Shown here piece by piece: positions 38,796 through 58,413 of a stretch of DNA of 64,000 nucleotides (the stretch's first letter is position 1; each line of letters begins with the position of its first letter). The stretch lies in NCBI RefSeq assembly GCF_003790525.1, contig NZ_CP033635.1; one strand, given 5' to 3'. The notes beneath the pieces were generated by a model that saw nothing but the letters and a program-made list of their open reading frames with translations, did no database searches and was not told the origin of the DNA. The position numbers and the translations under genes were made by a program. Source of the DNA: Escherichia coli. GTDB lineage: Bacteria; Pseudomonadota; Gammaproteobacteria; Enterobacterales; Enterobacteriaceae.

Positions 38796-39070
38796 TTGAC
38801 GATAGCTTTTTTCTTTTGTTATTCTGTACCCGCTTTAACTGTCGCTTCGGCGACCAACCAATCTCCCGGTGGTCTGAGAGGGAGGCTTACGCGACCACAC
38901 TGTCATCTCAGGATGACCAGCCAATGTTCCGGCAGTCTGAGAGGAGCGCCTTCGGGTGACTGCAATATCCCATGAGCCTGGAAGAGGATGCCTATATGGC
39001 GGCAACATCCGTTTAGCCTCTGGAAACGGATGTCACCAGTAGCTGGTGACTGAGGTACGTTATTTTTACC
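38796..39070 (+). ncRNA. candidate structured RNA or ssDNA element, two modules (copy 2)
   Basis: -35-like TTGACG 38796; hairpin GTCGC-TTCG-GCGAC; modules matching copy 1 A and B; terminal hairpin GTCACCAG-TAGC-TGGTGAC + T-run near 39031-39068. Confidence 0.45.
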
Positions 39071-39818
39071 TTCGGATTACCCGTACGGTTTTGTATGTCA
39101 TGAAACTTACGAGTTTTCCTCTCGCAGAGTGGCGAAAATGCCTTATATATCTGCGTCTTAAAGATTTTCTGTCTGGCTGCATGAGCTTCTTGTGACTGTG
39201 CGCACGGCATAAGGCCATTTGAAATTTGGCTGCTTGCGTGTGTACGTGGAGTCTGAAGCTGTGCGGCGTCACTTGCGTGCGACCGGAGGGAACACCAAGT
39301 GACGCCACAACAATCTGCCCTGAAAGCAGCATCACGTAAGGCCAGCCAGAAAATCGTCGCTCGTGACCAGCGTTCTGATGACCGTTTCGTCTGTCTGACA
39401 GCGTCTTTCAGTAACGTGTCCATGCCTTTCCGGCGCGTCCGTTTTCACGGACGGCCACGCCGGAATGTCTTTTTAAACTTCATAATACATGAGAGGTAAG
39501 TGTATTAAATAGTTGAAAAAAGGAATAAATATGAAAAATCGTTCTGATGTCGGAAGGCGTCATCGTAAGATGACGGGGAGTAAAAAATCGCCCTGGTGCA
39601 CAGGTAGCGAACTCCTGTAAAAACTCAACATGTGCAAGCTCTGCTACATCGACATCAAACGAGCCAGGAAGGCGAGCAACCGCGTTACAGAGCCGTCCGT
39701 GATGACGAAAAACTAACAATATCAACGATCTGGTCTGTTTATCGGAAGGGCATCTCATGCAGTTGAACTTTCAGAACGGATGGTTTTCTGCATCTTTTTT
39801 AACAGGGGGATTGACGTT

Positions 39819-40736
39819 ATGTCCCGTAAATCGTCACGTTCCAAAGTTGAAGTCTTTCGCAAGTCATTCATCTCACTTGCCCGTGATTGTGGTGGCAGCT
39901 ACGCAACAACCGCTGACAGAATGCGAATTGCCAGATACTTTTTGAATTATTTGCAAGTAAACGGTATCAAACTTCGTCAGACGGGCAGTATTAAGACGAG
40001 GCATATTTCTGGTTATCTTCTCAGCAGGAAAGAGCAGGGGATCTCTCACCGCACAATTCAGAATGAACGGGCAGTTATGCGCGCAATTCTAGAGAAAGAT
40101 GGTCGCCTTAAAATAGCGGATCCGTCCAATCCTTTATTGAGCAATGAAGCTCTTGGACTCAGGGATACATGCCGTGATGGTAAAAAGATACCACTCTCAC
40201 AGGATGAGTTTAATAAAGCCTTCAGTAAGGTTGAAAAAAATAATCCCGGTGTTGCTGCAGTAATGCAAATTTCTTATGTTCTTGGACTGAGGACAAAAGA
40301 AGCTGTTCAGTCTTGTAAATCAGTTAACTCGTGGCTACGTGAACTTGATTCAGGGCATGATTCTCTTCTCGTTGTTTTTGGGACGAAAGGTGGAAGGCCC
40401 AGAGATACAACGATCATTAATCGTGATGCAGTGAAACATGCGCTCATTTATGCAAAAAACATTATGGATAAACAGAATGGTAAACTTATCGATTGCCCCA
40501 ATATTAAACAGGCTATAAACGTATATCGTTACCATGTAAGAAAAGCTGGTTTATCTGGAGTGAAGGCACCACATAGTATGCGTTATCATTTTTCGCAGGA
40601 AGCAAGGCAGTTTTATCGAAAAAGTGGATATGGAGATAAAGAAATTTACGCAAGGGTTTCCATGGACCTTGGTCATGGTGACGGAAGAGGGCGTTATGTA
40701 AAACAGGTCTACTTTAAAGGCGATGATGAGAGCTGA
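39819..40736 (+). CDS. tyrosine recombinase/integrase-like protein
   Basis: ATG 39819 preceded by GGGGGA; SAM-like N-terminal region; candidate catalytic residues GLRTKEA, HSMRYHF, GRGRYVKQVY. Confidence 0.5.
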   Translation: MSRKSSRSKVEVFRKSFISLARDCGGSYATTADRMRIARYFLNYLQVNGIKLRQTGSIKTRHISGYLLSRKEQGISHRTIQNERAVMRAILEKDGRLKIADPSNPLLSNEALGLRDTCRDGKKIPLSQDEFNKAFSKVEKNNPGVAAVMQISYVLGLRTKEAVQSCKSVNSWLRELDSGHDSLLVVFGTKGGRPRDTTIINRDAVKHALIYAKNIMDKQNGKLIDCPNIKQAINVYRYHVRKAGLSGVKAPHSMRYHFSQEARQFYRKSGYGDKEIYARVSMDLGHGDGRGRYVKQVYFKGDDES

Positions 40737-40739
40737 TAT

Positions 40740-41480
40740 TTAAAATGAATCCGGAGGATATGTGTTTTTCGCGAACTTATTAATTTCTGTAATAAGAATT
40801 TCTGATGCACGATTACACATGCTCTCATTAAAGTATCCTATATGGCATTCATGGATGCGGCAATTTAGTTTTCTGGATAGCCATCTGTTTGCCTCGTTAC
40901 GGGATATATTTGTTTTTTGCTGATAGCTGTCAAAAAGTTTACGCACTTGTGCTCTGAGTATTCTCAAATTTTCTTTAGCTGGAGTACCTAATGGTCTCCC
41001 TGAATTTTTATGACATCCAACCCATGCATTGCATGGGCTGCAAATCCAGTAATATTTGTTTTCTGTAGTGGGTGTCGTGGAAAATGGCATAAGTGCACCT
41101 TTTCTGAGTTGTGCCTTATTACCACAGTAAGTGCAGATTACAATTGGACGAACATCTGCAATATTCAGTGCTGCATAAGTAAGACGTTCATTTTTCATCA
41201 TGTTTCGTTTTCCACAGTCAGTGAGAATATGCTTTATTGTGTCTAATTCTTCTCGGAGTATTTTTGAACGGACGCCAGTTCGATAACGCTGTTGAAAGTA
41301 GAGCTCAATATGGCGTAGTTTTATACTATTTATTGATTTTATCTGTATATTGGATTCTTTAAGAAATGAAGCAAATCTTCTGGCTCTCCCCATATATACC
41401 AGTATGTCTTCTGGTGTCGGGGCGCATGCTTTAGCTATTTTGATTAGCTCATCTTTTAATTTTTTGTATTTCGATTTCAT
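40740..41480 (-). CDS. integrase N-terminal-like domain fused to zinc-ribbon domain
   Basis: N-terminal ~100 aa resemble N-terminus of 39819 gene product; C-terminal CTYCG...CSPCN...C..H cluster; convergent, stops 3 bp apart. Confidence 0.45.
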   Translation of the reverse strand: MKSKYKKLKDELIKIAKACAPTPEDILVYMGRARRFASFLKESNIQIKSINSIKLRHIELYFQQRYRTGVRSKILREELDTIKHILTDCGKRNMMKNERLTYAALNIADVRPIVICTYCGNKAQLRKGALMPFSTTPTTENKYYWICSPCNAWVGCHKNSGRPLGTPAKENLRILRAQVRKLFDSYQQKTNISRNEANRWLSRKLNCRIHECHIGYFNESMCNRASEILITEINKFAKNTYPPDSF

Positions 41481-41593
41481 CCTGATATCTCTCTTTAAGG
41501 TTCATTAAGAGTGTTACTGAGTAAAAAAATATCAAATTAAGTATTTATTGTCATTCAGTTGTAGCTTCTCAGCCGCTCCACGACAATAACAAC

Positions 41594-41890
41594 TTGAAGT
41601 TTTATGCAGTTTGTGCTTACAATTTAAACGCTAACTTGTCGCTTCGGCGACCACCAATGTTCCATGTGGCCTGTGAGGAACGCCTTCGGGTGGCCCACGT
41701 CGCTCCGGCGACCACCAATGCTTCATCTGACCTGTGAGGAGCGCCTTCGGGTGGTCAGTTTTACACCTCCTGAGCCTGAAAGGAGCTGTGCGTGCTGAAG
41801 GGATATGTTCCCGGAAGTACGGGCAAATCTGCGCACCTTTGAGAGCAGATGTCACTGCGGTTTTCCGTGATGATGAAGGCTTTTTTATCA
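41594..41890 (+). ncRNA. candidate structured RNA or ssDNA element, two modules (copy 3, divergent)
   Basis: TTGAAG (41594) and TACAAT (41618) promoter-like pair; two modules with stems GUGGCC/GGCCCAC and CUGACC/GGUCAG around UGUGAGGA-CGCC-UUCG-GGUG; T-run near 41881. Confidence 0.4.
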
Positions 41891-43878: not shown

Positions 43879-44074
43879 CTCACAGCCATGAGGGCGCATA
43901 TAAGCCGTGTACTGGCGGATGTGATTTCAGCATACATTCTGCTGGTTTTTTTACCGTTGTTGACAATTTTAATCATCGCGGATGAACAACCTGAACTCTG
44001 TTGTTCACCGCCCGGAGGCATCGTTCCTTCGGACGGTGTGCTCTTTCATCAGAAAGAATCAGACAGGGGGTTTT

Positions 44075-44434
44075 ATGTATTCGCGTTTTATTACTGGTTA
44101 CTGGCATCTTCAGACGCAGTCCGCTTTGCTGGCACATCTCTGTCAGCTTGAAGGTGAACTGACGATACTTCGCGCCTGGCAATGTCTCGGAATTACCCCG
44201 GTGCCGGAGGATGAAGATGAGCCTTCACCACTTTACTCAATTTTGTGGGATGTTGGTGAGGCTCTGGGCTGGTTGCTGTATGACCTGGAGATGGAAAATG
44301 TTCCTGCACCGGGAACGATTTTCCACGAGGTATTCGACAGGGTTATATCTCTGGGGTATGAGACTGAGCCCGGTATCTGGGCTGAAAGTATCAGTACCGG
44401 AAAGCGCTACGCTGCAATGCCTGACGAATTTTAA
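44075..44434 (+). CDS. hypothetical acidic protein
   Basis: ATG 44075 preceded by AGGGGG, inside track ORF 43982..44434. Confidence 0.35.
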   Translation: MYSRFITGYWHLQTQSALLAHLCQLEGELTILRAWQCLGITPVPEDEDEPSPLYSILWDVGEALGWLLYDLEMENVPAPGTIFHEVFDRVISLGYETEPGIWAESISTGKRYAAMPDEF

Positions 44435-44447
44435 TGTTTTCCACATT

Positions 44448-44488
44448 CCCACAGGGACTCATCCCTGTGGGACGGGTCCCGGCTTTTT
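44448..44488 (+). terminator. intergenic hairpin plus T-run (terminator-like)
   Basis: CCCACAGGGA-CTCA-TCCCTGTGGG 10-bp stem then GGGAC..GTCCC and TTTTT. Confidence 0.45.
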
Positions 44489-44501
44489 CAGGAGAAATTT
44501 C

Positions 44502-44840
44502 ATGAGACCCGATTTGAATACTTTACCCGGAGATTCCGGCTGCAGCGTCTGGTTCTATGACGGAATGTCTCAACCGCGTCTGCTGGCGGGCAGTATTGCC
44601 GGGTTACTGACGGATGTTACGATCACATCGAATTACCGTGGTGACGTCACATCTGAAATTCATGACGTGGTGCAGGAGTGGCTTGCGACCGGCAGGGGTA
44701 ACCTGGCGGATTTAAAGGAAGAACTCTGGTACTACAACCTCTACATAAATCCGTCGGCAGACGAACTTATGAATGCCAACAGGCGGTATGGCCTCGGACA
44801 TACCACCAGGCTGAAAGGCTTTATCAATAACGCGGCGTGA
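44502..44840 (+). CDS. hypothetical protein
   Basis: ATG 44502 preceded by AGGAGA, inside track ORF 44211..44840. Confidence 0.4.
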   Translation: MRPDLNTLPGDSGCSVWFYDGMSQPRLLAGSIAGLLTDVTITSNYRGDVTSEIHDVVQEWLATGRGNLADLKEELWYYNLYINPSADELMNANRRYGLGHTTRLKGFINNAA

Positions 44841-44915
44841 CACACCGCCATCCCGTGAGGGCTCAGCTCCTCACGGGGCTGTTCCCTCGGTGATTTTCAT
44901 ACAGAGAGGAGCAGA

Positions 44916-45353
44916 ATGATGAACGTTAAGTCTGTGACTGAGGTTGACGACGCTGTGGTTGCCCGTGTCAGTGAAGTTCTGGAATTCGCATTTCCGGGGC
45001 AGAAATTTGAAGTGCTGAAGGTATGCGATTCCGGCGTTTACAACATGATTAATGTGTACTGGCTGGACGGCCCGACACAGGCTGAAGTGCGGTTTATCAC
45101 CCGTGCGTTTGAAGGCAAAAACGGGCTGAGGTTTGTGCACGAATCCCGCGAATTCAGTAATGAATTTGTGCAGGAGTGCATTGACCGGCTTCGCCAGAAG
45201 TACGGGCATCGCAACGTTCCGCCAGAGGTGACCGTGGAGCGTTACTGGAAAAACGATCTGTGGAAGATTAAAACAGATCGTTTCCCGGGCACTATTGAGG
45301 TTGCCATCAACGAAATGGGGATGGAAACCAGTAAATACCGGAAGGTTGTATAA
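44916..45353 (+). CDS. hypothetical protein
   Basis: 145-aa ORF with GAGGAG RBS; preceded by hairpin CCGTGAGG..CCTCACGG. Confidence 0.4.
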   Translation: MMNVKSVTEVDDAVVARVSEVLEFAFPGQKFEVLKVCDSGVYNMINVYWLDGPTQAEVRFITRAFEGKNGLRFVHESREFSNEFVQECIDRLRQKYGHRNVPPEVTVERYWKNDLWKIKTDRFPGTIEVAINEMGMETSKYRKVV

Positions 45354-45460
45354 CCGGCTGGACTTTTGACGATGGCGGAATGTGACAATTCCGCTTTTCC
45401 CGTGAGGGCATTGTTCCTCACGGGACAATGCCCTCTTCATTTACCAGAGGAGCATTGATT

Positions 45461-46438
45461 ATGGCTGAATGGTGCAGAAATCGTTTTGAAATCACCGGTA
45501 AGTCAGTCTGTCTTGACGTACTGATTCAGTGGATTGAAGGGAATGATGCCCCCCGGTACCGTCATGCGATCCAGCAGAGCATACTGCTGTTTCTTGCAGG
45601 CTGTGCGGGGATACTGAAACCGGTAAGAACGGTGTCATATCCGCCTTATCCCGGGCTGGTCAGTCACGGTGCCGGCTCAACAACTGTAGCCAGTCAGGCG
45701 TTTGAACAATGGCTGGGATTACTGACCAGGGATGCCTTCCTTGATCACGAGACGGTGAAGACAATAGATCGTCTTTATCATCAGACAGGGACAGGCGCTA
45801 TCCGGTGGAGTAATCTGCCTGATACGGCGAAGGAGATAATCGGTGGTGTGCTTGCACAACAATATGCTGACTGGTTTGGCGTGGCGGATGTGTATGAACG
45901 CCCTGATAACGCCTGTCTCTGGGAGTCGTTGTTAACATTTGCGGAGTATTCGCAACCCTGTGATATGCTGCAGGTGATGCCAACACGACTGGCCACGGAG
46001 CTGAACGGAAGTGGTGGTTTGCTGAAAGGCACCGGAACGACCCGCAGTTTTTACTGCCGCCAGTTTGGTATGGAGTACCCACTGGGGCAGAATGTCCGGT
46101 GGAAACGAACCGGGCTGAGTACGTTGATACTGGAGTTTGATACCATCTGGTGTCCGCCTTCAGGTGTACTGGTGGGGGAGATTTCGGCAGTGTTTGACTG
46201 TGAGGTCCGTCACTGGTACAGCGAGCCGAAGAACGGAATCAGAGGCTATGACTGTTATGATGGTGGTGAACATACGGACAGCAATATGGAAGCCGAATGG
46301 CCACACTCTGACGATGAGGGGGAGGTCGCGGAGCATGAGCAGCCACAACTCTGTCTGATCAGGGACACGCAGCCAGGTGAACGCGTCATGGCATTAGCAT
46401 CAGTCGAGTCCCCGGGGCCAGTAGTAAAAATAGTGTAA
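45461..46438 (+). CDS. hypothetical protein with acidic C-terminus
   Basis: ATG 45461 preceded by AGAGGAG, inside track ORF 45428..46438. Confidence 0.4.
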   Translation: MAEWCRNRFEITGKSVCLDVLIQWIEGNDAPRYRHAIQQSILLFLAGCAGILKPVRTVSYPPYPGLVSHGAGSTTVASQAFEQWLGLLTRDAFLDHETVKTIDRLYHQTGTGAIRWSNLPDTAKEIIGGVLAQQYADWFGVADVYERPDNACLWESLLTFAEYSQPCDMLQVMPTRLATELNGSGGLLKGTGTTRSFYCRQFGMEYPLGQNVRWKRTGLSTLILEFDTIWCPPSGVLVGEISAVFDCEVRHWYSEPKNGIRGYDCYDGGEHTDSNMEAEWPHSDDEGEVAEHEQPQLCLIRDTQPGERVMALASVESPGPVVKIV

Positions 46439-46519
46439 TGAAACAATGCGCCACATTTTGTGGCGCTTTTTTAATAAATCAGTGATGGCAGAGTTGTTAT
46501 TGTAAATAACTCTCCGTGT

Positions 46520-49435
46520 TTACTGAGTCAGTTTTTTTATCAGGTCGTGAATTTTATCACCTGAAAACTGGGTCATGAAAGTTATCTTTATGGATTTACT
46601 GATTTGTTCGAAGAGTTTCTGTGCATGTTTTATTTTATCGCGTTCTTCATGTCTGAGTTCACGTTTGCCATCAACATTTTTGGTTTCAATAATAAGGTTC
46701 AGATAATCACCCTTTGACGTGTTTACAACATAAGCGAAGTCAGGGGAGTAAGTGTATCCTCCCGCTACAGGAATTTTTATTGAATTTTTGGGGATCTTTG
46801 TGAAGACAATGACTGACCTGACCTCACCCTCTGTCATATTGAGTTTTTCAAGTTCTGAATCATAAAATACTTCTTCAAAAAGATAAGAGTCCAGTGGAGG
46901 GCTTGTATTATCCTGTAAAACGCCAAGATCACTTGACAATACATCAGCAAGATAACCGCCGTCTGCATTGGTGAATTTCGTGGGATGGACAGTTCCTGAT
47001 ATTACATTATACCCAAGGCTGAATTTACTGAACGAGTTATTAAGCAAATACTTGCTGAAACCAGATTTAATTTTTCTGATTGTCTGAATGTTAAGGTATT
47101 CAGTTATATTTATGATGTCTTTTATATCACAAAAAACCTTATGCATGGTGTCATGTTTGACAAAAATAGTCTGTGATAATTTATCAAGGAATTCACGATA
47201 GCTCATTGTGTTTATTTTGTGAAAATTATCCTCATCAACACTGAGAATGCTTTTCGACATTGCCGTATCATTATGGATATAAATTCTTTCAATACGAGTA
47301 TGAGCACCGGATTTGGTAAATCTGTCTGCTTCTTCCAGCATAAACGCTCTGAAAAGGGATAAAAACTCACGTTCACTTTTTATTTTATACTCAATCACGA
47401 CCTTTTGATTGATCAAGTCCCATAGTTCTTTCAGCTCACTGAACTTACCAACACGCATTTTAGTGCGTCTTTTTCCATCAGAGGCTTTTTTTATTTTGCC
47501 TGGTTTCACTCCTGCAGGAAATGCTGCCGGATATCTGGCTTTTAAGCGGCTATAGGCATCTGAATCTTTGAAGTTATCATTATCATCAATGATCTCATCA
47601 TCAAAAATTTCATTCAAGAGTGTTCTGGAGGAAAGCTCCGGATATTGAGACAGGATTTTATCCTTAAGTTCCTGAGTAAACTTACCTGGAACAGTCTCTT
47701 TGAAAGAACTATCGTTGATCTCTTTGACAAGAGAATCGACAAAATCTTTTTCTGTAAAATCAACATAATAGTTGAGGGTAAAATTGCGGTCTTTCACACG
47801 ACACATGTATTCATTCACCGGAAGACGTAAACCACGCCCTACTTCCTGAAGTTTAGATGTGGTGCTACCGCTCGAACGGAGCTTACAAATCTGAAAGACA
47901 TTTGGGTTATCCCATCCCTCACGCAACGTCCATTTAGAGAAAATGAAACGGCGAGGATTTTCTAAAGACAATAGAAGCTCTTTATCATGAAGGATTTCGT
48001 TGATTTCCTGCTCAATTTTATCATCTTTATCACTATTATCTTTTGAAAAATAACCACCATGAACAGAAGATATATCCTTAACAGTTTTTTCAAGGTAGTT
48101 TCTGTAAAACTCATCTTTTTCTGTTTTTAACAGTTCATTTGCTTCTGCCAAAACGTATTCTTCGAACTTAGTTTTCAGGCTTCCTGCAATATCATTACCA
48201 TCACGATAGCCTTCAATGTCATCAATGAAGAAAAGAGTAAGAGGTTTTATGCGTGGCCTTTGTGTCAGATACTCTTTTTCTAACTTAAAGTGTTCTTTGA
48301 CAGCTTTACGTATCATGTTATCAGCAAGTGTCTGATCGTAAGAATAGGGGTTTATCGAACTACCAATTTTTAGCTCAATACCATTACTCAACACTGCTGT
48401 ATTCTTATTTAAAGCATCAAGAGTTAAATCATGGATCGCACTATGCGTCTTAGATAGTGATTCACCTTTGGCTAACTTAAAAATTTTTTTATTATTATTT
48501 TCGTTCAGTTCAAATGTAGCTTCTTTTCCGTCAGATTTGACCAACTTGAGGTTGGCATTACCATCACCAACTATATCCTCAATGTATGCATCAATACCTT
48601 TAACAAGATCTTCATTGAAGGCATCTACGGCTGTAAGACGATAAACTAAGTTCTTATAGCCTTCACTAAAGGTTGCACCATAGCGGATGATATATTGGGC
48701 ATTAAATTTTTGAATATGTTCCCATGTCTTTTTACCAGTAGGAAATTTATGAGGCTCATCAATGATAATGAATGGTTTTATCGCACTAAGTGCAGAAAAT
48801 GGGGTATCAAACTGATTATTAAGCAAGCCAACATCATAAGTGTCAGTTAAAGACTTAGAGTTAATCATCCCTGAATTGATCACAAGAATGTGTATATATT
48901 TCTTATTGAAATTACTTGCTTCAACAAAATCATGGATAGCTTGAGGCATATACGATTTTGTATTTTTACCCGAACGTTTCTGACTTTCAACAACGTAAGT
49001 CTTTAGTTCACGCTCGTAATCATCTCGAAAGTGTTCTTTTATAGCATCGCTTTTTAAAAAGTTAACGGTTCCGGCTTTGATCGATAGGGTAGGAACAATG
49101 ATGATAAACTTGTTAATACCAAATGATTTGTTCAGGTCAAAAATTGTTTTGGTGTAAGTATAAGTTTTACCTGTACCTGTCTCCATAGAAACATCAATTA
49201 CGTTGCTTTTAGCATCGTAATTATCTTTTGAGTGCTCAATACCATTGAACTCCTGAACATTTTTTATGTTGTTGTAGTATTGTTGTTCAGATAGATTCAG
49301 TTCTGGATTAGCTAACAGGCGAATTGCAACATGATCCGTCTGATGAGGTATGGCGGATACAAAGACATTCATTACCGAATCAACGCCAGCCTTTTGATGA
49401 GGTAAATTTTTTTCGAATGTGAACCCTTTAGACAT
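46520..49435 (-). CDS. res: Type III restriction endonuclease subunit Res
   Basis: SF2 helicase motifs METGTGKTYT and IIIDEPHKF; C-terminal PD..(E)xK-like YSPDFAYVV...IIETK; directly downstream of mod; AT-rich. Confidence 0.85.
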   Translation of the reverse strand: MSKGFTFEKNLPHQKAGVDSVMNVFVSAIPHQTDHVAIRLLANPELNLSEQQYYNNIKNVQEFNGIEHSKDNYDAKSNVIDVSMETGTGKTYTYTKTIFDLNKSFGINKFIIIVPTLSIKAGTVNFLKSDAIKEHFRDDYERELKTYVVESQKRSGKNTKSYMPQAIHDFVEASNFNKKYIHILVINSGMINSKSLTDTYDVGLLNNQFDTPFSALSAIKPFIIIDEPHKFPTGKKTWEHIQKFNAQYIIRYGATFSEGYKNLVYRLTAVDAFNEDLVKGIDAYIEDIVGDGNANLKLVKSDGKEATFELNENNNKKIFKLAKGESLSKTHSAIHDLTLDALNKNTAVLSNGIELKIGSSINPYSYDQTLADNMIRKAVKEHFKLEKEYLTQRPRIKPLTLFFIDDIEGYRDGNDIAGSLKTKFEEYVLAEANELLKTEKDEFYRNYLEKTVKDISSVHGGYFSKDNSDKDDKIEQEINEILHDKELLLSLENPRRFIFSKWTLREGWDNPNVFQICKLRSSGSTTSKLQEVGRGLRLPVNEYMCRVKDRNFTLNYYVDFTEKDFVDSLVKEINDSSFKETVPGKFTQELKDKILSQYPELSSRTLLNEIFDDEIIDDNDNFKDSDAYSRLKARYPAAFPAGVKPGKIKKASDGKRRTKMRVGKFSELKELWDLINQKVVIEYKIKSEREFLSLFRAFMLEEADRFTKSGAHTRIERIYIHNDTAMSKSILSVDEDNFHKINTMSYREFLDKLSQTIFVKHDTMHKVFCDIKDIINITEYLNIQTIRKIKSGFSKYLLNNSFSKFSLGYNVISGTVHPTKFTNADGGYLADVLSSDLGVLQDNTSPPLDSYLFEEVFYDSELEKLNMTEGEVRSVIVFTKIPKNSIKIPVAGGYTYSPDFAYVVNTSKGDYLNLIIETKNVDGKRELRHEERDKIKHAQKLFEQISKSIKITFMTQFSGDKIHDLIKKLTQ

Positions 49436-49437
49436 GA

Positions 49438-51474
49438 TTAGTTCCTTACCACCAAATCTAAATCAATAGATTTTTTATTAGCATAACTTTTTAGTGCTTC
49501 ATTGAGTTCCATCTGTTTCGCACTTTCGAAGTTGCTGCCATAAAATACAACTTTGTTAGGGGCAAAGTCTTTGTCTGCATCCAGCTTTTGAAGTAAAGCT
49601 TTCAAAGCCTCACTTGTGAAATTAGGCGCAATTAGATATAGCCGACCATCGCACAAGTGTGCTTTGTAGCCATTAAGGTCAATATCTTCAATTGGTGTTG
49701 TTAGCAAGCTGCCATCATACACGCACCATGTCGTCAATAGAGTGTCATACTGCTCTGGTGTCAATACAGCATCGTCAAAGAAACTAAGATTAGAAAGCGT
49801 AAGTTCAGACTCATCTTTCACTCGAAAATTATGAACTGTTTCAAATATTTTAAATCCCAAATCTCCATTATAATTAGGATTATCTTTTTTCAGCTTTTTT
49901 CCTGCCTTAATAATTCTGTCTTTTGTTATATTGAAGATGGATTTATACCCTTCTTTATAGGCTTGTTTCTTTTTATCTGTTTCTTCATCTAATTGAACAC
50001 AGATGAAGTTTCTTTTCCTGCCGTCTTCAATATTTAACTCCAGAATACCATGAGCTGTAGTTCCAGAGCCAGCAAAAAAGTCAAGATAAATGTCTTTATC
50101 TTCGGCTTTTACTGAACCAAATAGTGTTTTTATTAAACTTGTTGGCTTCGGGTAGGAGAAATATCCTTTCCCACCAAAAAGATTTTCAACCTCAACACCA
50201 CCATCACTTTTAGTTGAAATAATTGATCTTAGTAAAAACTCTTCAACTTCATCTAAAAATTTAACCGAACTGGGTTGGGTGTTTTCTGTACTGGCAAACC
50301 AAATTCCACCACAAATAACGCTACCATCATGTAGTTTTTTGATATCTGCATACTTTCCATCTATTCTTTTTGCAATATGATTAAAAGTGCCTTCTTTCCA
50401 ACGCCAGCCTCTGTCTGGGATTTTGACAGGGTTATTAGTCAAAGGGTGCAATACTTCATACGTGGGTCCAAATGAATCTGCATTAGGCCAGCTCATATTA
50501 ATTTTACCCCATGGCCTATAATCTTCGTTCAAACAGTTGTAAAGAGTAATTCCACGATCATATCCGTTGGAGCTGTAGAATTTTTTGAGTTGCTGCTCTG
50601 CTTTATCTAATGGCACCTTCTCCTTTTTTAACTTTTCAATAAACTGATATACATCATCAATACCATCTTTCCGCATTAAAAATTCTTTACTTATTTCGTT
50701 ATTCTTCGCATAAGCAAGGATGTACTCATGGATATTACCAATACCCTTATCATTTTTAGGGATACGTTTATTCCATACAATATTTTCTATGAAATTTGCT
50801 TCGCCAAAAATTTCATCACAAATAGTTTTAAGTTGATTTAATTCATTTTCGTCAATCGAAATAAATATCACACCATCTTCACGTAGAAGCTCACGAGCAA
50901 TATATAAACGAGGATAAATGAACGTTAACCATGCGCTATGGCTGCTTGAACCATTCGTGGTAAATTCAAGTATACGTTTAGCCTCATCAAGATCGATACC
51001 TGCCAGATCAGAAAGCTGTTCAGGTGTAAACTTGCGATCATCGTTATAGGCGAATCCATCCTTACCTGTATTGTATGGTGGATCAATGTAAATCATCTTC
51101 ACCTTTTCAGAGTAAGCATTAACCATATGCTTCAATACTTCGAGGTTATCCCCTTTGATTAACAGATTCTGACTGTTTTTGTTCTCTTCACGTTGGTTAT
51201 GGTCTTTATCTTCGGAGAGTAATGTCTTCGGCGGCAAGTTAGCTAACAGACGGGCATAGGATTTACCAAGCCAGTTCAGGCTGTATGATTCTTTGGAGAG
51301 TTCAACATCCGATGATTTGACGATTTCAAGCAATTTTTCCTGAATGAACGCTCCATTTTTATCAAAACACTGTGGAAAGTTAGCCTTTAAAATCGCAAGC
51401 TGTTTACTGTTTGTGGTTTCAGTTTCAGAGAAAAGAGTTTCTTTTTTCAGTTGAAATTGGGGTTGTGTATTCAT
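49438..51474 (-). CDS. mod: Type III R-M N6-adenine methyltransferase Mod
   Basis: DPPY motif (IYIDPPYNTG) before FxGxG motif (LDFFAGSGTTAHG); N-terminus resembles EcoP15I-type Mod; GGAGGT RBS. Confidence 0.88.
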   Translation of the reverse strand: MNTQPQFQLKKETLFSETETTNSKQLAILKANFPQCFDKNGAFIQEKLLEIVKSSDVELSKESYSLNWLGKSYARLLANLPPKTLLSEDKDHNQREENKNSQNLLIKGDNLEVLKHMVNAYSEKVKMIYIDPPYNTGKDGFAYNDDRKFTPEQLSDLAGIDLDEAKRILEFTTNGSSSHSAWLTFIYPRLYIARELLREDGVIFISIDENELNQLKTICDEIFGEANFIENIVWNKRIPKNDKGIGNIHEYILAYAKNNEISKEFLMRKDGIDDVYQFIEKLKKEKVPLDKAEQQLKKFYSSNGYDRGITLYNCLNEDYRPWGKINMSWPNADSFGPTYEVLHPLTNNPVKIPDRGWRWKEGTFNHIAKRIDGKYADIKKLHDGSVICGGIWFASTENTQPSSVKFLDEVEEFLLRSIISTKSDGGVEVENLFGGKGYFSYPKPTSLIKTLFGSVKAEDKDIYLDFFAGSGTTAHGILELNIEDGRKRNFICVQLDEETDKKKQAYKEGYKSIFNITKDRIIKAGKKLKKDNPNYNGDLGFKIFETVHNFRVKDESELTLSNLSFFDDAVLTPEQYDTLLTTWCVYDGSLLTTPIEDIDLNGYKAHLCDGRLYLIAPNFTSEALKALLQKLDADKDFAPNKVVFYGSNFESAKQMELNEALKSYANKKSIDLDLVVRN

Positions 51475-51531
51475 AACGCACCTCCAGAATGCACGGAGGT
51501 ACTTGACGCGGAATTTTTATACAGGCATATT

Positions 51532-51659
51532 GTTGCGTTGCGTTGCGTTGCGTTGCGTTGCGTTGCGTTGCGTTGCGTTGCGTTGCGTTGCGTTGCGTTG
51601 CGTTGCGTTGCGTTGCGTTGCGTTGCGTTGCGTTGCGTTGCGTTGCGTTGCGTTGCGTT
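51532..51659. repeat. pentanucleotide simple-sequence repeat (GCGTT)n, ~25 copies, 58-185 nt upstream of mod start
   Basis: Read directly: uninterrupted gttgc/gcgtt tract from about 51532 to 51659. Confidence 0.95.
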
Positions 51660-51740
51660 TCATTAAATAGCCTCGAGTTTCGTTTTACAGGTTTTTATTC
51701 TAACCTGAATTGTTGATTTTCTGAATAAGTCTGACGTCAG

Positions 51741-51900
51741 TTGTTACGGGAAGGTATCAGAGTGGCTAGATGCACTGTGGCACGTCTCATGGCGGTTATG
51801 GGGCTTGCCGGCGTTCTCCGGGGGGTAAAGCTCCGTGCTACTGTCACCTGGAACGCCGTTGCCGCAGGCGACCGCGTAAACCGTCTGTACCGCCCGGGCC
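51741..51900 (+). pseudogene. IS3-family transposase fragment
   Basis: Translation REGIRVARCTVARLMAVMGL resembles IS3-family OrfB N-terminal region; no integrase core follows. Confidence 0.35.
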
Positions 51901-51940
51901 CAATATTAAGAACTAACGTCATACCAGGGACGTTGTCTGA

Positions 51941-52954
51941 ATGGATGAGAAGCTAAAACATGCGGATTTATCGTCTTTGCCAGAGCAGGTGAGGGTTGCC
52001 GCTAGGGAGCTTGTTGACCTGAAGTTTCGTATCGATATGGCAGCAAGAGGCGGTACGTCAGGGATACCACTTGACCTGCATGGGAGGATGACAGGAGGAG
52101 AATGGGGGCCGCATTGCGGGCTGGAATTTTTCTGCAGCATCATTCCTTTTTTCCCGCGAGATTTTGAAACCTGTTCAGTAACTGAAATGTTGGTTCCTAC
52201 CTTACATACCTTCGGCTGCAACTGGCGTTGGTGGCCCGATCGTTATTGTAGCGACAAAGATGAACACTATATACGGCGTCACATTTTTTCTGATTACGGG
52301 CTGAAAAGTACGAGCTATACCTTCATTCCTCAGTTGGGATTGTTCTGCCCGAGTGAAGGTAAAAATCGTGTTAACTTCTGCCGCCATCACGGTATCGAAT
52401 ATATCCCCGCACAGGTTTATTCCCATGATTACCCAGAAGCAAATCGAATCTCTGTGTACGTTCAGGATACTGCCGGAGGGCTGGATGTGTGGGCCGTTCT
52501 TGATAATCGCTATGTTCAGAAGGTTACTCACTATGCCTTTGCGCTCCCACTTTTGTGCGCTTATGGGGTAGAGTTCCCAGGTAAGTGGCCAGCAGGATGG
52601 CCATCGATATCGGACCTCCTGGCTAATCAACTGTGTTGCACTGATGACACAACCTTTCATAAACCCGTGATCGATATGCAAGCTGTCAGGGATACGCTGG
52701 ATCGTGATGAGAACAGCAGAGAGGATGGGGAGATGTATGTCAAAACCAATGTGGTTGAGCTGCCGCTGGCCGGGCTGGTTCGCTTCATTCTGATCGCAAT
52801 GTTACTGAGTTTAGGTGCGTTGTTCATCCACGAGGTACTGGATGAGGGAAGCCTGTCCAGGATTGCACTGGGAATAAGCACTTTCACGGCTGGCGTGGTT
52901 GCTTCGTTTTTTATCCCAGCGTTCCGTATCAAGAAAAAATATCTTCGCAAATAG
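51941..52954 (+). CDS. hypothetical protein with two C-terminal TM helices
   Basis: 337-aa ORF, Cys/Trp/His-rich soluble domain, hydrophobic helices near residues 280-330. Confidence 0.4.
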   Translation: MDEKLKHADLSSLPEQVRVAARELVDLKFRIDMAARGGTSGIPLDLHGRMTGGEWGPHCGLEFFCSIIPFFPRDFETCSVTEMLVPTLHTFGCNWRWWPDRYCSDKDEHYIRRHIFSDYGLKSTSYTFIPQLGLFCPSEGKNRVNFCRHHGIEYIPAQVYSHDYPEANRISVYVQDTAGGLDVWAVLDNRYVQKVTHYAFALPLLCAYGVEFPGKWPAGWPSISDLLANQLCCTDDTTFHKPVIDMQAVRDTLDRDENSREDGEMYVKTNVVELPLAGLVRFILIAMLLSLGALFIHEVLDEGSLSRIALGISTFTAGVVASFFIPAFRIKKKYLRK

Positions 52955-52974
52955 TTGTGGCATTTCTTGAACAC

Positions 52975-53224
52975 TTTTTCGAGACAGGTTCAACCGCAGG
53001 CATTCAGGCCAAACATGCGGTTAAACTACGTATTCAATTAACTGCCCTAAATATGGCTAAGCGCCCGGACGATATGTCTGTCTGCACCTAGGTGGAAATT
53101 ACACCCTCTAAAGGGAGCTGATCTTAGAGGTCATTGGGAAATATCAGTAAACTCTAACTGGCGAATTACCTTTCGATTTGAAGGCGAAGACGCAATTCTG
53201 GTTGACTATCAGGATTATCATTGA
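52975..53224 (+). pseudogene. higB: higB-like (RelE/ParE superfamily) toxin remnant, frameshifted
   Basis: C-terminal frame reads KLHPLKGADLRGHWEISVNSNWRITFRFEGEDAILVDYQDYH*; N-terminal part in another frame, no intact start. Confidence 0.5.
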
Positions 53225-53232
53225 GGGATAAC

Positions 53233-53975
53233 TGAACCGCCCCGGGAATCCTGGAGACTAAACTCCCTGATAAAGAGGTAAACAGAATGGCTAAAAATAC
53301 TCGTTTTTCCCCCGAAGTCCGTCAGAGGGCGATTCGTATGGTTCTGGAAAGTCAGGGCGAATATGACTCACAGTGGGCGGCAATTTGTTCCATTGCCCCA
53401 AAGATTGGCTGTACACCGGAGACTCTGCGTGTCTGGGTACGCCAGCATGAGCGGGATACCGGAGGCGGTGATGGCGGGCTCACCACCGCTGAACGTCAGC
53501 GTCTGAAAGAGCTGGAACGTGAAAATCGTGAACTGCGCCGCATCGTCTATGGAAACGACATTCGTGCTGGATGCTCTGGAGCAGGCGTTATGGGCCCGTC
53601 GACCGTCCGGCACAGTCCATCACAGTGATAAAGGTTCTCAGTATGTATCGCTGGCCTACACAGCGGCTTAAGGAAGCCGGATTACTGGCATCAACAGGAA
53701 GTACTGGTGACTCGTATGACAACGCGATGGCGGAGAGCATCAATGGCCTTTACAAAGCGGAGGTAATACACCGTAAGAGCTGGAAAAACCGGACAGAAGT
53801 GGAGCTGGCCACACTCACGTGGGTGGACTGGTCTAACAATCGACGATTGCTGGAAAGGCTGGGCCATATCCCACCGGCAGAAGCAGAAAAAGCTTATTAT
53901 GCTTCCATCGGAAACGATGATCTGGCAGCCTGAGTTCACAGATAAAACACTCTCCAGGAAACCCGGGGCGGTTCA
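53233..53975 (+). mobile_element. IS629/IS1203-like (IS3 family) element remnant with internal deletion
   Basis: Left IR TGAACCGCCCCGGGAATCCTGGAGACTAAACTCCCTGA at 53233; orfA 5' part joined to orfB 3' part; imperfect right IR ending 53975; flanked by AAC direct repeats. Confidence 0.7.
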
Positions 53976-53979
53976 AACT

Positions 53980-54188
53980 ATGAGTCGTATTCATAATCCC
54001 GCCACTCAGGCGCGGTTCTTCGTGAAGATCTGGGAGATATGTCAGTCACAGACGCTGCCACCGCATTGGGCATTACTCGCACGGCGCTTTCCCGGATTCT
54101 GAACGAAAAAGCGGGTATTTCTGCGGATATGGCGCTCCGTCTGGAATCAGCACTCGGAACCAGCGCCGAAATGTGGACAGGTATGTAA
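53980..54188 (+). pseudogene. higA: higA-like HTH antitoxin remnant
   Basis: ATG 53980 (MSRIHNP) then frame change into ...AVLREDLGDMSVTDAATALGITRTALSRILNEKAGISADMALRLESALGTSAEMW. Confidence 0.4.
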
Positions 54189-54379
54189 TCACAGTATGAG
54201 CTTTGGGTTGCTTCGCAAACTGCTCGCCCAAACATTCGCCCATTATTTCACCATGCCTGACATGCATTCCCCAACATTGGACGGGGAGCCGTCATGGAGG
54301 GGGCTACGCAGGAACCGCCGAAAGCACGCTGTTTTATATTTGTTTTATTGAATATAAGAGGAGGCCATAAAACGGCCCC

Positions 54380-54720
54380 CTTGTTTTTATCAGAAAGAGT
54401 AACGGAAGCTGGCGTTCACCGCGTTATCCACGTTGTACTTACCAAATGCCGATTTCTCAAACTCCAGACCAAAGCGGAGATTATCGCGAATTTCTGCATT
54501 CAGACCAACATTCATGAGCATACGTCCGTCTTTCTCGCCTTTGATGCGTTTTTCACCAGAGGCATCGCGCGGAACGGTTTCACTGTTTGCCAGAATGTCA
54601 AACTGGTAACCGAGGCCGGCACGGGCAGTGACTTTCCAGTCCTTACCAGAGAAGGTTTTACCGACATCGATACCGGTACGGCCAATCAGCGGGTTGAAGT
54701 CCTTTCTGGTGTGAGAACCT
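54380..54720 (-). pseudogene. flu: antigen 43 (autotransporter) C-terminal beta-barrel fragment
   Basis: Reverse translation ...KDFNPLIGRTGIDVGKTFSGKDWKVTARAGLGYQFDILANS...NAVNASFRYSF*; in-frame stop at upstream junction 54721. Confidence 0.6.
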
Positions 54721-54869
54721 TAAGGAAATCGTCCGCAGCCCCATTACCGTCTTATATCACTGGCGCTGACATGTATTATCCGGGGAGTTAAGTCTGTCGA
54801 TGTCCGACAGACTTTTGATAATGGAAACAACATGCAGCGATAATGTGCATGCTGTTTTGCAGGTGGAAC

Positions 54870-56072
54870 TCAGAAGGTGAACTGCAACTGTGCGACCGCA
54901 CCGTAAGTGTTGTCCGTGCCGATCAGGCCTGCCACATCAAGGTGAACCACATCAAACGGTGAGATACCAACCCCGGCCGTGAATGCACTGCCGTTGTTGC
55001 TGGCCAGATTCTGGCGGTAACCGGTACGTAACTGTGCCCATTTCCAGGCATTAAACTCAGCACCAACGGCGGCAAACTGACGTTTGCTGTCTGATGTGAA
55101 GCCGCTGGCCGGGGTCAGATCCACATCCAGTGCCGTGGTGAACATGTCGTTGTGCCATGATACGCCGGTCGTTACCTGCGGACGGATCCTGAAGGTTTCA
55201 GTGACACCATGTACCTCTTTGGTCTCAATGCTGCGTGGGATCAGGTTTTGTGCGACCAGACCCAGCGTCCAGTTGTCATCCAGGTCCATGCTGGCACCGA
55301 TATCAGCGTTAATACCGTTTTGGGTGTTGTGGTAACGGTTACCTTTGAATGCGCTGCTGTCATAGTTTTTGATCAGCGTATTGTAGTTAAACAGGTCAAC
55401 ACGCTGGAATTTTGGTGTGAAGCCCAGTGACCATTTTTGTCCGGCCGTTTCCAGTTCAGTGGCCAGCGCAACGCCCACATCGGTGATCAGTGCGGCACGG
55501 GCAAAAGCCTGTGAGGTCAGTCTGTTTTTATCCACATCCTGGCTGCCACTGTCTGCAATGCTTTCCAGATAGTTCAGGTCGGCATCGCTGACTTTACCGT
55601 CGACGCTGACAGTCCCGAACGTTTTCAGCATCAGTGCAGCAGCGAGGGTATCACCGGGAAGGGCCGCCACAGCAGATACCCCGGCCTGTGCGCTGGCATG
55701 GGTGTTCCGGAAGTCCTGCAGTCTCTCTTTCAGGCGGGCCGCTGTCTGCGGTACCCCGGAGTGGCTGTCGACGGCACGGTCGAAGGCTTTCCAGTCATCG
55801 CTGATTTTGTCGGCGTTGTCGGCGATATTACCCGGATCGGACAGCTGCGCACCCACGGACGGAAGCAGAAGACTGAAGTCATCTTTTGCACCGGATTTTG
55901 TCAGCAGTGCCGGGTTTGCCAGTGGGGCCACACCATAGTGAGAGGAGGCAACCCCCGTTCCTCCCATCGCATCATTGCGGGCTTCAAAATATGACGTTGC
56001 TGCAGTCGAATTAAAGGAAAATAAAACGGCAGACGCGATGAGAGTACGGGTAATATGCTTTTTCATCATCAT
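54870..56072 (-). CDS. outer-membrane beta-barrel protein (TraF_2/FadL-like, putative)
   Basis: Signal peptide; C-terminal aromatic end QLQFTF. Confidence 0.45.
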   Translation of the reverse strand: MMMKKHITRTLIASAVLFSFNSTAATSYFEARNDAMGGTGVASSHYGVAPLANPALLTKSGAKDDFSLLLPSVGAQLSDPGNIADNADKISDDWKAFDRAVDSHSGVPQTAARLKERLQDFRNTHASAQAGVSAVAALPGDTLAAALMLKTFGTVSVDGKVSDADLNYLESIADSGSQDVDKNRLTSQAFARAALITDVGVALATELETAGQKWSLGFTPKFQRVDLFNYNTLIKNYDSSAFKGNRYHNTQNGINADIGASMDLDDNWTLGLVAQNLIPRSIETKEVHGVTETFRIRPQVTTGVSWHNDMFTTALDVDLTPASGFTSDSKRQFAAVGAEFNAWKWAQLRTGYRQNLASNNGSAFTAGVGISPFDVVHLDVAGLIGTDNTYGAVAQLQFTF

Positions 56073-56173
56073 TTCAGTTTCCTGTATTGAGGTATTTTGG
56101 GTATAACAACAGAGGGCACGGCTGTGCCATTAAAAATAGTTGGTGTATTATTCCGGTTTGTTGCTCAGTATTA

Positions 56174-56995
56174 TTACCAGGGGGATAACGGAACCCTGAA
56201 TAACGCAGTGGGTAATATTTTTCCTGTTATCAGATATTCTGCCTGTGCCGGAGTGAGTGTTACGGCGCGAACAGGGATATCCGGAGATATTTTTCGGGCC
56301 ATCTGAAACCAGCCTTCTTTTTCTATATCCATTCTGACCGGATATAACGAAAGTACCGGATAAATAATGGTGTTATTAATTTCTTTTTTCTGCCTGAGCA
56401 GAACGCCGCAATATTCTCCGGAATGCGTTCCGGCAAACGGAAAACCATGCCAGAGAATAATGTCCATATTCTCGCGGGCTGAAATAATCCTGCAGAATAT
56501 CTCCTGTGTGGCTGGCCAGTCTCCCGGACGATACAGTGGATAATGCACCCTGCCGTTCAGCCATTCCGGACTGAGATAAAACCAGTCAGCCAGTGCTGCA
56601 AGAATCTCCCCGCTCAGATAGTCAGTGAGTCTGTCCGGCTCCCGGAAGACGGCAGGGCGGATATTCCAGGGGGCCAGTAATGCAGCCATCGTTGTTGCGC
56701 TGATATCATGTGCCTGCATGATGTGCTCCATCCTGCTGAGAAGACGGCGGACGATGTTATCTGCAGGAAGAAACATTTCACTTAACGCGTCTTCGACCAG
56801 GATACGCGTCAGGTCAGAGACGGAAAGAGAAAGCTGTTCGCTCATGATACCAAGGGCATCCCTGACTCCCTGCGGATAACGAACCTGCAGGGGTGTGGAC
56901 TGCAGCTGGCGATGACTGAGCAGGCATTCGCAAATTCGCTCCCTGTCCAGGGAGAGCATCATACGGGCGGCAATACCTGTGCTGTCAGTTTTCAT
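56174..56995 (-). CDS. hypothetical protein downstream of rci
   Basis: 273-aa ORF on same strand as the pil operon. Confidence 0.4.
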   Translation of the reverse strand: MKTDSTGIAARMMLSLDRERICECLLSHRQLQSTPLQVRYPQGVRDALGIMSEQLSLSVSDLTRILVEDALSEMFLPADNIVRRLLSRMEHIMQAHDISATTMAALLAPWNIRPAVFREPDRLTDYLSGEILAALADWFYLSPEWLNGRVHYPLYRPGDWPATQEIFCRIISARENMDIILWHGFPFAGTHSGEYCGVLLRQKKEINNTIIYPVLSLYPVRMDIEKEGWFQMARKISPDIPVRAVTLTPAQAEYLITGKILPTALFRVPLSPW

Positions 56996-57207
56996 TTCAC
57001 CTCCATGCGGGTCAGCGTGTTTTGTTCATAAATTGAGTCTAAAGAGAGTGTTTTTTAAACGGAAGCGAGTTATTTCGATCGTTATGATCGAGTGTGTTTC
57101 AAGAGTGTTTGCAACTCTGTTTTAAGGGCGAATGAAAAGGATTCGGACAGGATGACCGTGATTAATTTAACCCGGAAGCAAAAGTTGATTTTCATTCTGA
57201 TATGCCT

Positions 57208-58332
57208 TCAGTTTGTTAACGGACAAATCATGACCCGTTCATCAATGTTTGCGGGTAGCTCGCCTGGCGTGGGAACGCGTTCACCCCGCTGAGCAGCCTG
57301 TGCCAGTGTGCGCAGCAACAATACGCTGGCATGAGATATAGCCAGTTCCCGGGTTTCTGCACGGGTTTCAAGGTCGAAATCGTGCAGTGTCACGACAAAC
57401 AGCCCGTTTCTGCACCCGACAGTTGCAGGGTAGGGAACAAAATAAGGTGAAATTTTGCTGGTCTGTTTACGCCTTGCATCGAGTTTGCTGACCAGCTGAT
57501 ATGCCCGGAGATGCGTGTACCGTTTTAACATGTTCAGGGAGCGGTGGCCTGAAATAGCGGCAACTTCAATGACATTCAATGTACCAAGTTCGAAAAATCG
57601 GCTGATGGCTTCATGACGGAGATCGTGAAAATGCAGATTTTCTATTTTCAGGTCCAGAAGTGCGGTACGCCAGGCGCTTTTGAAACCGGATGAGGTGTAA
57701 CTGAACACATTGCCGTTTATCTGTTGTGGCAGAATTTGCAGGTAGTTGCGAGCTTTCCGGGAGAGTGGGACATCGCGTGGTAAACCATTTTTCGTTTCAG
57801 GAAGATGCGCCACTCCGTGCTGCAAATCGAGGTGTTCCCAGCGTAATGTGAGAATTTCCCCCTGTCGCATTGCTGTTTCCAGGGCCAGATGGAAGATAAC
57901 GTAGAGCTGCTGATTTTTATCTCTGAAATAGCGGGAGAGTCGGCGTTCTTCGCCAGAAGTCAGGCGACGCTCTCGCCCATTACTGATTTTGGGTTTTCGG
58001 ACCAGTTCAACAGGATTCATACGGCATGTCCCCCATTCCACACGGGCGATATTGAATAATGATGATAAAAGAGCAAGTTCAAGACGGACGGTGTTTCCGG
58101 TGATTTGACGCCCAGTTCGTGGGTTAATTTGAGCCAAACGCTGATCCCGGTAACTGGCGATATAAACGGTCGTGATTTCATCCATATAGCGATCGGCCAC
58201 AGGGTGACGTTTAATCACATTGACGCGATAAACCTCCTGCAGATGCCCTTTTTTATGGACGGAAACGGTTTTCAGGTATTTGTCCAGCGCCCGGTTGAGA
58301 GTCATTTTGCGAATTTTGATTTTTCGAAACAT
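57208..58332 (-). CDS. rci: shufflon-specific tyrosine recombinase Rci
   Basis: ATG 58332 ([30 protein letters not shown]...) matches R64-type Rci; track ORF extends further upstream in frame. Confidence 0.85.
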
Positions 58333-58394
58333 ATCGGCCTTCCACGATAAAAACGGGGAAGGTAGGAATAGTGAAACGGAAATGCAATATCGCC

Positions 58395-58413
58395 GTGCCA
58401 ATCCGGTGTGTGG
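58395..58413 (+). repeat. shufflon sfx 19-bp repeat (left)
   Basis: GTGCCAATCCGGTGTGTGG, matching the R64 shufflon repeat consensus as I recall it. Confidence 0.85.

Follow-up and report, generated by a model that had tools for sequence, protein, structure and literature searches.

Organization of the locus

A 64,000-nucleotide stretch of an Escherichia coli chromosome (contig NZ_CP033635.1 of RefSeq assembly GCF_003790525.1), which was analysed at its full length and is termed here the window, contains two convergent genes whose products share the N-terminal domain of a family of tyrosine recombinases. Gene A (39819..40736, plus strand) encodes a protein of 305 residues counted from its annotated ATG (WP_000088134.1, "integrase domain-containing protein"); its longest open reading frame (ORF) begins ahead of this codon, at 39780. 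Gene B (40740..41480, minus strand) encodes a protein of 246 residues (WP_000838048.1, "zinc-finger-containing protein"). The two genes are arranged tail-to-tail with their stop codons 3 bases apart, and the coding sequences annotated by RefSeq in E. coli GF60 have limits identical to those of the ORFs. The arrangement had been proposed in a first-pass annotation made from the DNA letters, and both its gene limits and all the peptide strings it quoted are found in the translations. The pair lies within a chromosomal integrative conjugative element of the SPI-7/PAPI/pKLC102/ICEEc2 type, whose gene set includes TIGR037xx conjugation proteins, an SPI-7-type DnaB, ParA/ParB, topoisomerase III, Ssb and ArdA. 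Gene A is located about 17 kb inside this island, between traG and anti-restriction genes. Hairpin-rich modules bracket the pair, as also noticed at first pass. They correspond to STAXI and EFASI, two Rfam motifs that owe their names to the association with this integrase family; STAXI is present on either side and EFASI lies between the first STAXI and gene A. Of 5426 complete E. coli genomes, 51 contain both genes, in two sequence variants; many of these 51 are of poultry origin.

Gene A encodes a tyrosine recombinase that is not the excision integrase

The gene A product comprises a SAM-like core-binding (CB) domain (39861..40118, plus strand, residues 15-100; Phage_int_SAM_2, PF12834, E-value of 1.1e-22) followed by a catalytic domain (40155..40712, plus strand; Integrase_1, PF12835, E-value of 1.8e-51 over residues 113-261). 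Residues R158 (in GLR), K190 (in the β-hairpin), H252-x-x-R255, H286 (in LGH), Y293 and Y298 are invariant in 20 homologs with identities down to 53%. The R-K-H-R-H/W-Y catalytic set is therefore complete in gene A, with Y293 or Y298 as the candidate nucleophile. The AlphaFold model (mean predicted local distance difference test score, pLDDT, of 87.6) displays the two-domain tyrosine-recombinase fold, and a structural similarity search of the PDB using Foldseek revealed Xer, lambda Int, Tn1549 Int, XerH and Cre with a probability of 1.0 and E-values of ~1e-4; YopR, MrpR and SroF are also among the matches. At the sequence level the relationship is distant. A search of PDB sequences with gene A returned no match, profile mapping onto solved recombinases gave none, and a XerC model matched the gene A sequence only remotely (E-value of 5e-4). 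In an hhalign comparison with Cre, which was weak, R158 aligned with Cre R173 at low confidence. The ratio of non-synonymous to synonymous substitution (dN/dS) of gene A relative to the 82%-identical E. coli variant is 0.07, and that of the catalytic domain is 0.076. These data support the recombinase fold and catalytic residues assigned to gene A at first pass. They place it in an uncharacterised Integrase_1/Phage_int_SAM_2 family, all catalytic positions being kept in gene A. The family numbers 1586 homologs from islands and plasmids of Enterobacterales; in the SPI-7/PAPI/ICEEc2-type elements of this order it is a conserved accessory gene, preceded by a fixed non-coding module and flanked by traG and anti-restriction genes. 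Judging from its conserved residues, gene A appears to be catalytically competent.

A homolog of gene A has been deleted experimentally. In ICEKp2 of Klebsiella pneumoniae HS11286, excision remained intact after deletion of int2b and was abolished by deletion of the terminal int2a (Farzand et al. 2019, PMC6761156). The primers published for the int2b deletion enclose an ORF to which the gene A profile gives 396 bits. This ORF belongs to the ~50% identity class relative to gene A and occupies the same position, between traG and anti-restriction genes, with EFASI before it and a STAXI copy downstream. As int2b deletion spared excision, the gene A family is one of accessory recombinases rather than excision enzymes; int2b is the only Integrase_1 family member with a genetic test, and that test covered excision alone. 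Gene A is not the att-site integrase of the island: it is located in the interior, a separate integrase is encoded at the island end (57208-58461), and its homolog int2b is dispensable for excision. Gene A is probably an active recombinase with a job other than excision.

Gene B joins a core-binding domain to DUF3268

The gene B product starts with a CB domain (41199..41465, minus strand, residues 6-94; Phage_int_SAM_2, PF12834, E-value of 2e-11) and continues with a DUF3268 domain consisting of a zinc ribbon and a helical part (40797..41141, minus strand, residues 114-228; PF11672, E-value of 7.2e-27; PHROG 1934, E-value of 2e-32). BLASTP aligned the products of genes A and B over the N-terminal 134 residues with an E-value of 6e-10, and no catalytic recombinase domain was identified in gene B by Pfam search. 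The zinc ribbon thus takes the place of the catalytic domain, in agreement with the first-pass description. All four zinc-ribbon cysteines (C116, C119, C147 and C150) are present, and the near-invariant DUF3268 residues H157, D184, H213 and C222 are kept. Structural search confirmed a CB fold for the N-terminal domain, again with YopR, MrpR and SroF among the matches, and revealed nothing significant for the remainder in the PDB beyond the zinc ribbon, with no Xis-like fold. Between the two E. coli variants the dN/dS of gene B is 0.15 overall, 0.20 for the N-terminal domain and 0.12 for DUF3268; both genes, and both halves of gene B, are under purifying selection. At its C-terminus, after a variable linker, the protein terminates in the tail YP[PAT]DSF-COOH (window 40740-40760), which is conserved in island-borne DUF3268 proteins, whether fused or stand-alone (P0004, P0005, P0007, P0009, P0134 and P0139), and looks like a short docking motif.

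Origin and genomic neighbourhood of the fusion

The CB-DUF3268 fusion is rare, with 6 full-length clusters among 5.8 billion proteins. Fusions account for ~5 of the 2908 DUF3268 representatives, the remainder being stand-alone proteins of 120-180 residues. In a neighbour-joining tree all fusion N-terminal domains form one clade, separate from the integrase N-terminal domains, and none is closer to its own neighbour than to distant integrases, which indicates a single old fusion. Gene B therefore arose once, when the CB domain of an Integrase_1 family member was joined to a DUF3268 zinc-ribbon protein of a type already resident in such elements. Since then the fusion has been an optional passenger that stays close to the integrase. 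In 6 of the 7 fusion lineages that could be placed, an Integrase_1 gene lies at most ~2 kb away in the same island segment, in two arrangements and down to 38% identity. The fusion is tail-to-tail with the integrase in the second E. coli variant, in K. oxytoca and a metagenome contig (53-56% identity) and in a 39% relative, while in another lineage of 38-39% identity it is on the same strand, ~1.9 kb upstream of the integrase. In the Brenneria lineage the fusion gene is disrupted, still close to the integrase. A Salmonella element carries, ~1.5 kb upstream of the integrase and on the other strand, a stand-alone DUF3268 gene with the same YP[PAT]DSF tail as the fusions. Co-occurrence of the pair across genomes, which the first-pass annotation had put forward as a check, consequently holds in one direction: the fusion is found near an integrase, whereas the integrase is usually found without the fusion.

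Homology among the related loci, here given the labels under which they were fetched (for example, L022 for Pectobacterium, L026 for ICEKp2, and L016 and L017 for Xenorhabdus budapestensis), does not extend past the stop codon of the integrase, and the sequences beyond have no core in common. The slot that follows is occupied by gene B in the window and by a 140-residue gene on the same strand in L002, and in several loci it is empty or contains a small or uncalled ORF; in ICEKp2 it holds ORF8 (L026 1088-2041), a convergent gene for a 317-residue protein unrelated to the CB-DUF3268 fusion, with 4 nt separating the two stop codons. The region immediately 3' of the integrase acts as a slot for variable cargo.

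A survey of DUF3268 neighbourhoods in species-representative genomes yielded three loci only. Stand-alone DUF3268 genes lie beside DUF4942 or dnaE genes in gene-dense plasmid regions. On a Klebsiella plasmid (L018) a DUF4942 gene adjoins a stand-alone DUF3268 gene, and P0138 (L014 6001-6804) contains two tandem DUF3268 domains and directly follows a DUF4942 gene. On the Xanthomonas plasmid pXCV183 a different tyrosine recombinase (PF00589) adjoins a DUF3268 gene.

The non-coding module upstream of gene A

The region upstream of gene A presents an ordered series of elements. A TG-extended sigma-70-like pair, TTGACG-18-TATTCT (38796..38825, plus strand), is located just upstream of the first STAXI and is the candidate promoter of a unit composed of STAXI, a palindrome, EFASI and gene A. 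STAXI (RF01728; 38841..39060, plus strand) is built of tandem hairpin/pseudoknot units of ~60 nt, of which the part 38901-39060 matches Rfam with 89.1 bits (gathering score of 40.5 bits) and an extra repeat unit, 38841-38896, extends beyond the matched part. The palindrome, GCGTCACTTG-N20-CAAGTGACGC (39261..39309), is present in a single copy and is a candidate protein-binding or folded nucleic-acid site. The multi-stem EFASI (RF02957; 39539..39661, plus strand; 77.2 bits, gathering score of 51.2 bits) ends 157 nt before gene A begins. On the other side of the pair, the TG-extended site ATGACA-17-TATTTT (41526..41554, minus strand) is found upstream of gene B; it is a consensus match only, and sigma-70-like consensus sites are as numerous in the region as expected by chance. 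A further sigma-70-like site, TTGAAG-18-TACAAT (41594..41623, plus strand), ends 13 nt before the downstream STAXI copy (41637..41808, plus strand; 83.3 bits) and marks the candidate start of the next transcription unit. A third STAXI copy is located at 10617-10770, with a -35/-10-like pair at 10515-10543.

The order STAXI, EFASI and integrase is kept in every related locus scanned. In Enterobacteriaceae, STAXI followed several hundred bp downstream by EFASI and then by an integrase is a described association (Weinberg et al. 2010, PMC2864571), and the Rfam description of EFASI, in the excerpt quoted in PMC12370729, reports the same association. These two sources describe exactly the arrangement found upstream of gene A; they deal with the RNA motifs only and do not cover the family or role of the integrase, the palindrome or the CB-DUF3268 partner.

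In 8 of the 15 STAXI copies, from several loci, a -35/-10 pair is located upstream, its -10 element ending 12-14 nt short of the 5' end of the motif (copies were taken from the window, L002, L003, L005, L007, L011, L021 and L029-L031), compared with a background of 6.5% for any such site within 130 nt. The pair recurs on small plasmids despite non-homologous upstream DNA. Its fixed position, maintained next to unrelated upstream sequence, implies that STAXI is probably the 5' end of a transcript.

The palindrome has the general form GCGTCACTT[G/T]-N20-22-[C/A]AAGTGACGC and precedes the integrase ATG by 470-570 nt, as a single copy, in 11 of 11 aligned loci; it was recorded in the window and in L002, L003, L005, L007, L010, L011, L016, L021 and L026. 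The window contains one copy of the pattern compared with none expected by chance, and the exact pattern occurs in 13 fetched loci. Its arms show a compensatory change in L007 and L010, and the inner stem pairs covary. No Rfam family matched the palindrome, which may serve to bind a protein, as a hairpin for recombination or at an origin of transfer (oriT), or as an RNA hairpin.

Two other explanations of the flanking structures were dropped. The att-like repeats that had been envisaged around the pair were not found, the only flanking direct repeats being the STAXI units, which are known RNA motifs with promoter-like sites. Single-stranded DNA (ssDNA) promoters of the Frpo type, known from plasmid leading regions, were set aside since the hairpins are STAXI and EFASI with positionally fixed sigma-70-like promoters; ssDNA folding of 39120-39400 gave moderate z-scores of -2.5 to -3.2, with no long Frpo-like hairpin.

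The module without the gene pair

A 0.95-kb module corresponding to window positions 38836-39811, which stop 8 nt short of the gene A start codon, occurs by itself on E. coli plasmids of 5.3 kb and 3.1 kb with 90-99.7% identity. The plasmids (NZ_CP100506.1, labelled L030; NZ_CP135677.1; NZ_CP059920.1, labelled L029; and NZ_CP135679.1) have otherwise unrelated backbones and carry neither an integrase nor a DUF3268 gene, and two of the host strains also hold the island. The 3.1-kb plasmid is a Rep_1 rolling-circle replicon, typed as mobilizable by MOB-suite, without an annotated relaxase. Its STAXI (L029 2862-3110) is 100% identical to the island copy proximal to ssb and the topoisomerase gene (window 10570-10818), and the remainder of its module is similar to the integrase-proximal copy, a mosaic that points to recombination between STAXI copies. 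The occurrence of the module on its own suggests that it has a function of its own, either as a non-coding RNA or as cis-acting DNA, such as a single-strand origin or oriT.

A comparable unit of 1.9 kb is found at two unrelated chromosomal sites of Xenorhabdus budapestensis (L016 7171-9037 and L017 7166-9040), the two copies being 91% identical. It consists, in order, of a promoter-like site, one STAXI-like repeat, the palindrome, EFASI, the integrase and a terminator-like hairpin, and its neighbours are contact-dependent inhibition (CDI) toxin/immunity genes at one site and a non-ribosomal peptide synthetase/polyketide synthase (NRPS/PKS) cluster at the other. This 1.9-kb unit is possibly a small mobile or modular unit. 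Many Xenorhabdus genomes carry several integrase copies.

Possible functions of genes A and B

We tentatively favour a reading in which gene A is a recombinase that does not act in excision and gene B an optional accessory whose exapted CB domain modulates gene A, and hold it to be plausible rather than probable. Gene A would perform site-specific recombination on the island unrelated to excision; its most plausible job would be to resolve or process the circular replicating form, possibly at the single palindrome upstream. Gene B, which would be unable to cleave DNA, may use its CB domain for DNA binding or for docking on gene A and would modulate rather than enable it. Targeting or modulation of gene A by gene B is possible by two routes. 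The gene B product may occupy sites or compete for them; in addition, the genes are tail-to-tail and no terminator-like site was found between them, an organization in which convergent transcription could be mutually interfering.

Several observations weigh against this proposal. Most integrases have no gene B counterpart (1586 homologs compared with ~6 full-length fusion clusters), and in five of five integrase loci reached independently of gene B, namely two plasmid-borne elements, the two Xenorhabdus chromosomal sites and ICEKp2, no DUF3268 gene was present. The Pectobacterium fusion (L022) has no integrase within the 6 kb fetched on either side and is followed by ars cargo, and in some E. 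coli gene B is split or truncated (H114; P0003, with 26 member sequences). Within the protein, the window copy and its closest E. coli variant have R, Q and N at the near-invariant DUF3268 positions H180, W187 and Y198, respectively, and the integrase CB invariants R78, T79, N82, E83 and R88 are not retained. The N-terminal domain is 22-40% identical to all integrases, its own neighbour being no closer than distant ones; this lack of closer likeness and the loss of the CB invariants count against a common DNA site for genes A and B, as do the many integrases without gene B and the three replaced DUF3268 residues. Crossover regions of classical recombination sites measure 6-8 bp, a length exceeded by the 20-nt spacer of the palindrome, which may instead be an RNA hairpin. 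Finally, unrelated genes fill the slot after the integrase elsewhere, so that the adjacency of genes A and B may reflect only a cargo hot spot.

These observations also bear on the proposal, raised at first pass, of a recombinase with a dedicated partner. Because the integrase family is far larger than the fusion and mostly lacks it, the pair is not an obligatory two-component system. A true two-component system, in which gene B is required by gene A as a directionality or targeting factor, would account for the CB domain common to both proteins, for the tail-to-tail pairing kept in four lineages and for the PF00589 recombinase beside a DUF3268 gene on pXCV183, but it is very unlikely given more than 1500 integrase homologs for so few fusion clusters, the five independent loci devoid of DUF3268 and the truncated copies of gene B. 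The size of its product, 246 residues without a Xis-like fold, and its absence from most integrase loci likewise speak against the directionality factor suggested at first pass. The main rival is instead functional independence of genes A and B, which we regard as somewhat unlikely. Gene B would then be a variable "establishment" gene in which the DUF3268 activity matters, its CB domain a borrowed DNA-binding or dimerisation module, and its closeness to the integrase a relic of a partial duplication and of a shared short segment. DUF3268 is overwhelmingly stand-alone in phages, plasmids and integrative conjugative elements (2908 representatives; PHROG 1934), including the copies next to DUF4942 or dnaE, and the variable slot, the integrases without gene B in most elements and the lack of co-variation between the gene B N-terminal domain and the neighbouring integrase all agree with independence. 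What counts against it is that the fusion has remained within 2 kb of an integrase through at least one rearrangement, down to 38% identity, that PF12834 is otherwise confined to integrases in this analysis, and that the N-terminal domain of gene B is under purifying selection (dN/dS of 0.20).

Two further readings concern gene A itself. It could be a DNA-binding regulator with a recombinase fold, like the SPbeta/phi3T repressors MrpR, YopR and SroF, gene B being a second regulator derived from the same DNA-binding domain. All three repressors are among the structural matches of gene A and of the gene B N-terminal domain, and the ICEKp2 homolog is dispensable for excision; yet all six catalytic positions are invariant in homologs down to 53% identity and the catalytic domain is tightly constrained (dN/dS of 0.076), a pattern unexpected if catalysis had been abandoned, which leaves this reading with only a slight probability. 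Alternatively, the 0.95-kb module could be a transferable cis-acting ssDNA element (a priming or single-strand origin, oriT or a site where folded DNA recombines). In that case gene A, by analogy with IntI acting on attC or XerCD acting on CTX ssDNA, would act on folded DNA after conjugative entry or rolling-circle replication, and gene B would be a catalytically dead CB competitor expressed from the opposite strand. Such an element would explain the presence of the module, without the integrase, on two unrelated small plasmids (one a Rep_1 replicon) of island-bearing strains, its position near ssb, topoisomerase and anti-restriction genes, and the lack of an oriT among the findings in ICEKp2, although we consider it distinctly unlikely.

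Comparison with known recombination systems

Simple tyrosine recombinases, such as XerCD on dif and cer, Cre on loxP and ResD on rfsF, resolve multimers of replicons. Similar to these resolvers, gene A combines CB and catalytic domains in ~300 residues without an arm-binding domain, and a single candidate palindromic site is located near it on a replicon with its own DnaB, ParA and ParB. In contrast, gene A is only remotely similar to them in sequence and the spacer of its candidate site is 20 nt long. Recombination directionality factors (Xis) are small basic proteins of the winged-helix or helix-turn-helix type. Like them, gene B adjoins the recombinase it might modulate, but it consists of 246 residues comprising a recombinase CB domain and a zinc ribbon and is missing from most homologous integrase loci. 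Exapted recombinase domains are represented by the DNA-binding domains of ALOG and Ndc10 and by MrpR, YopR and SroF; gene B differs from these in retaining the CB domain only, in being fused to DUF3268 and in lying beside a catalytically intact paralog. The resemblance to the integron IntI/attC system is one of analogy only, the promoter-like sites and UUCG-type loops of STAXI pointing to RNA, and no attC or integron feature was detected in scans of the window.

The first-pass annotation is thus partly supported: its reading of the gene architecture is right, and the partnership of genes A and B is optional and one-sided. The Integrase_1 family counts more than 1500 homologs from islands and plasmids of Enterobacterales, and a single genetic test indicated that its enzyme is not the one responsible for excision. 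STAXI has been an orphan motif since 2010 and EFASI since 2017. Their link to a defined transcription unit, to a palindrome and to an integrase whose only known partner is a CB paralog makes their function testable. If gene B antagonises or retargets gene A, it would represent a new form of tyrosine-recombinase control, exerted by a paralog in which only the core-binding domain has been retained; failing such an effect, the pair would be ordinary and gene B one more domain exaptation in a mobile element.

Other features of the island

No relaxase or oriT was found within the 64-kb window, and no PFGI-1-class relaxase in the right arm of the island (44000-58500); this copy of the island may not be self-transmissible. 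Neither gene A nor gene B was matched by the PADLOC models, and a reading of the pair as an anti-phage defence was accordingly dropped. A ProQ/FinO-like gene near traG is present in L004 and absent from the window. The right arm of the island encodes a type III restriction-modification system and contains toxin-antitoxin remnants and fragments of insertion sequences.

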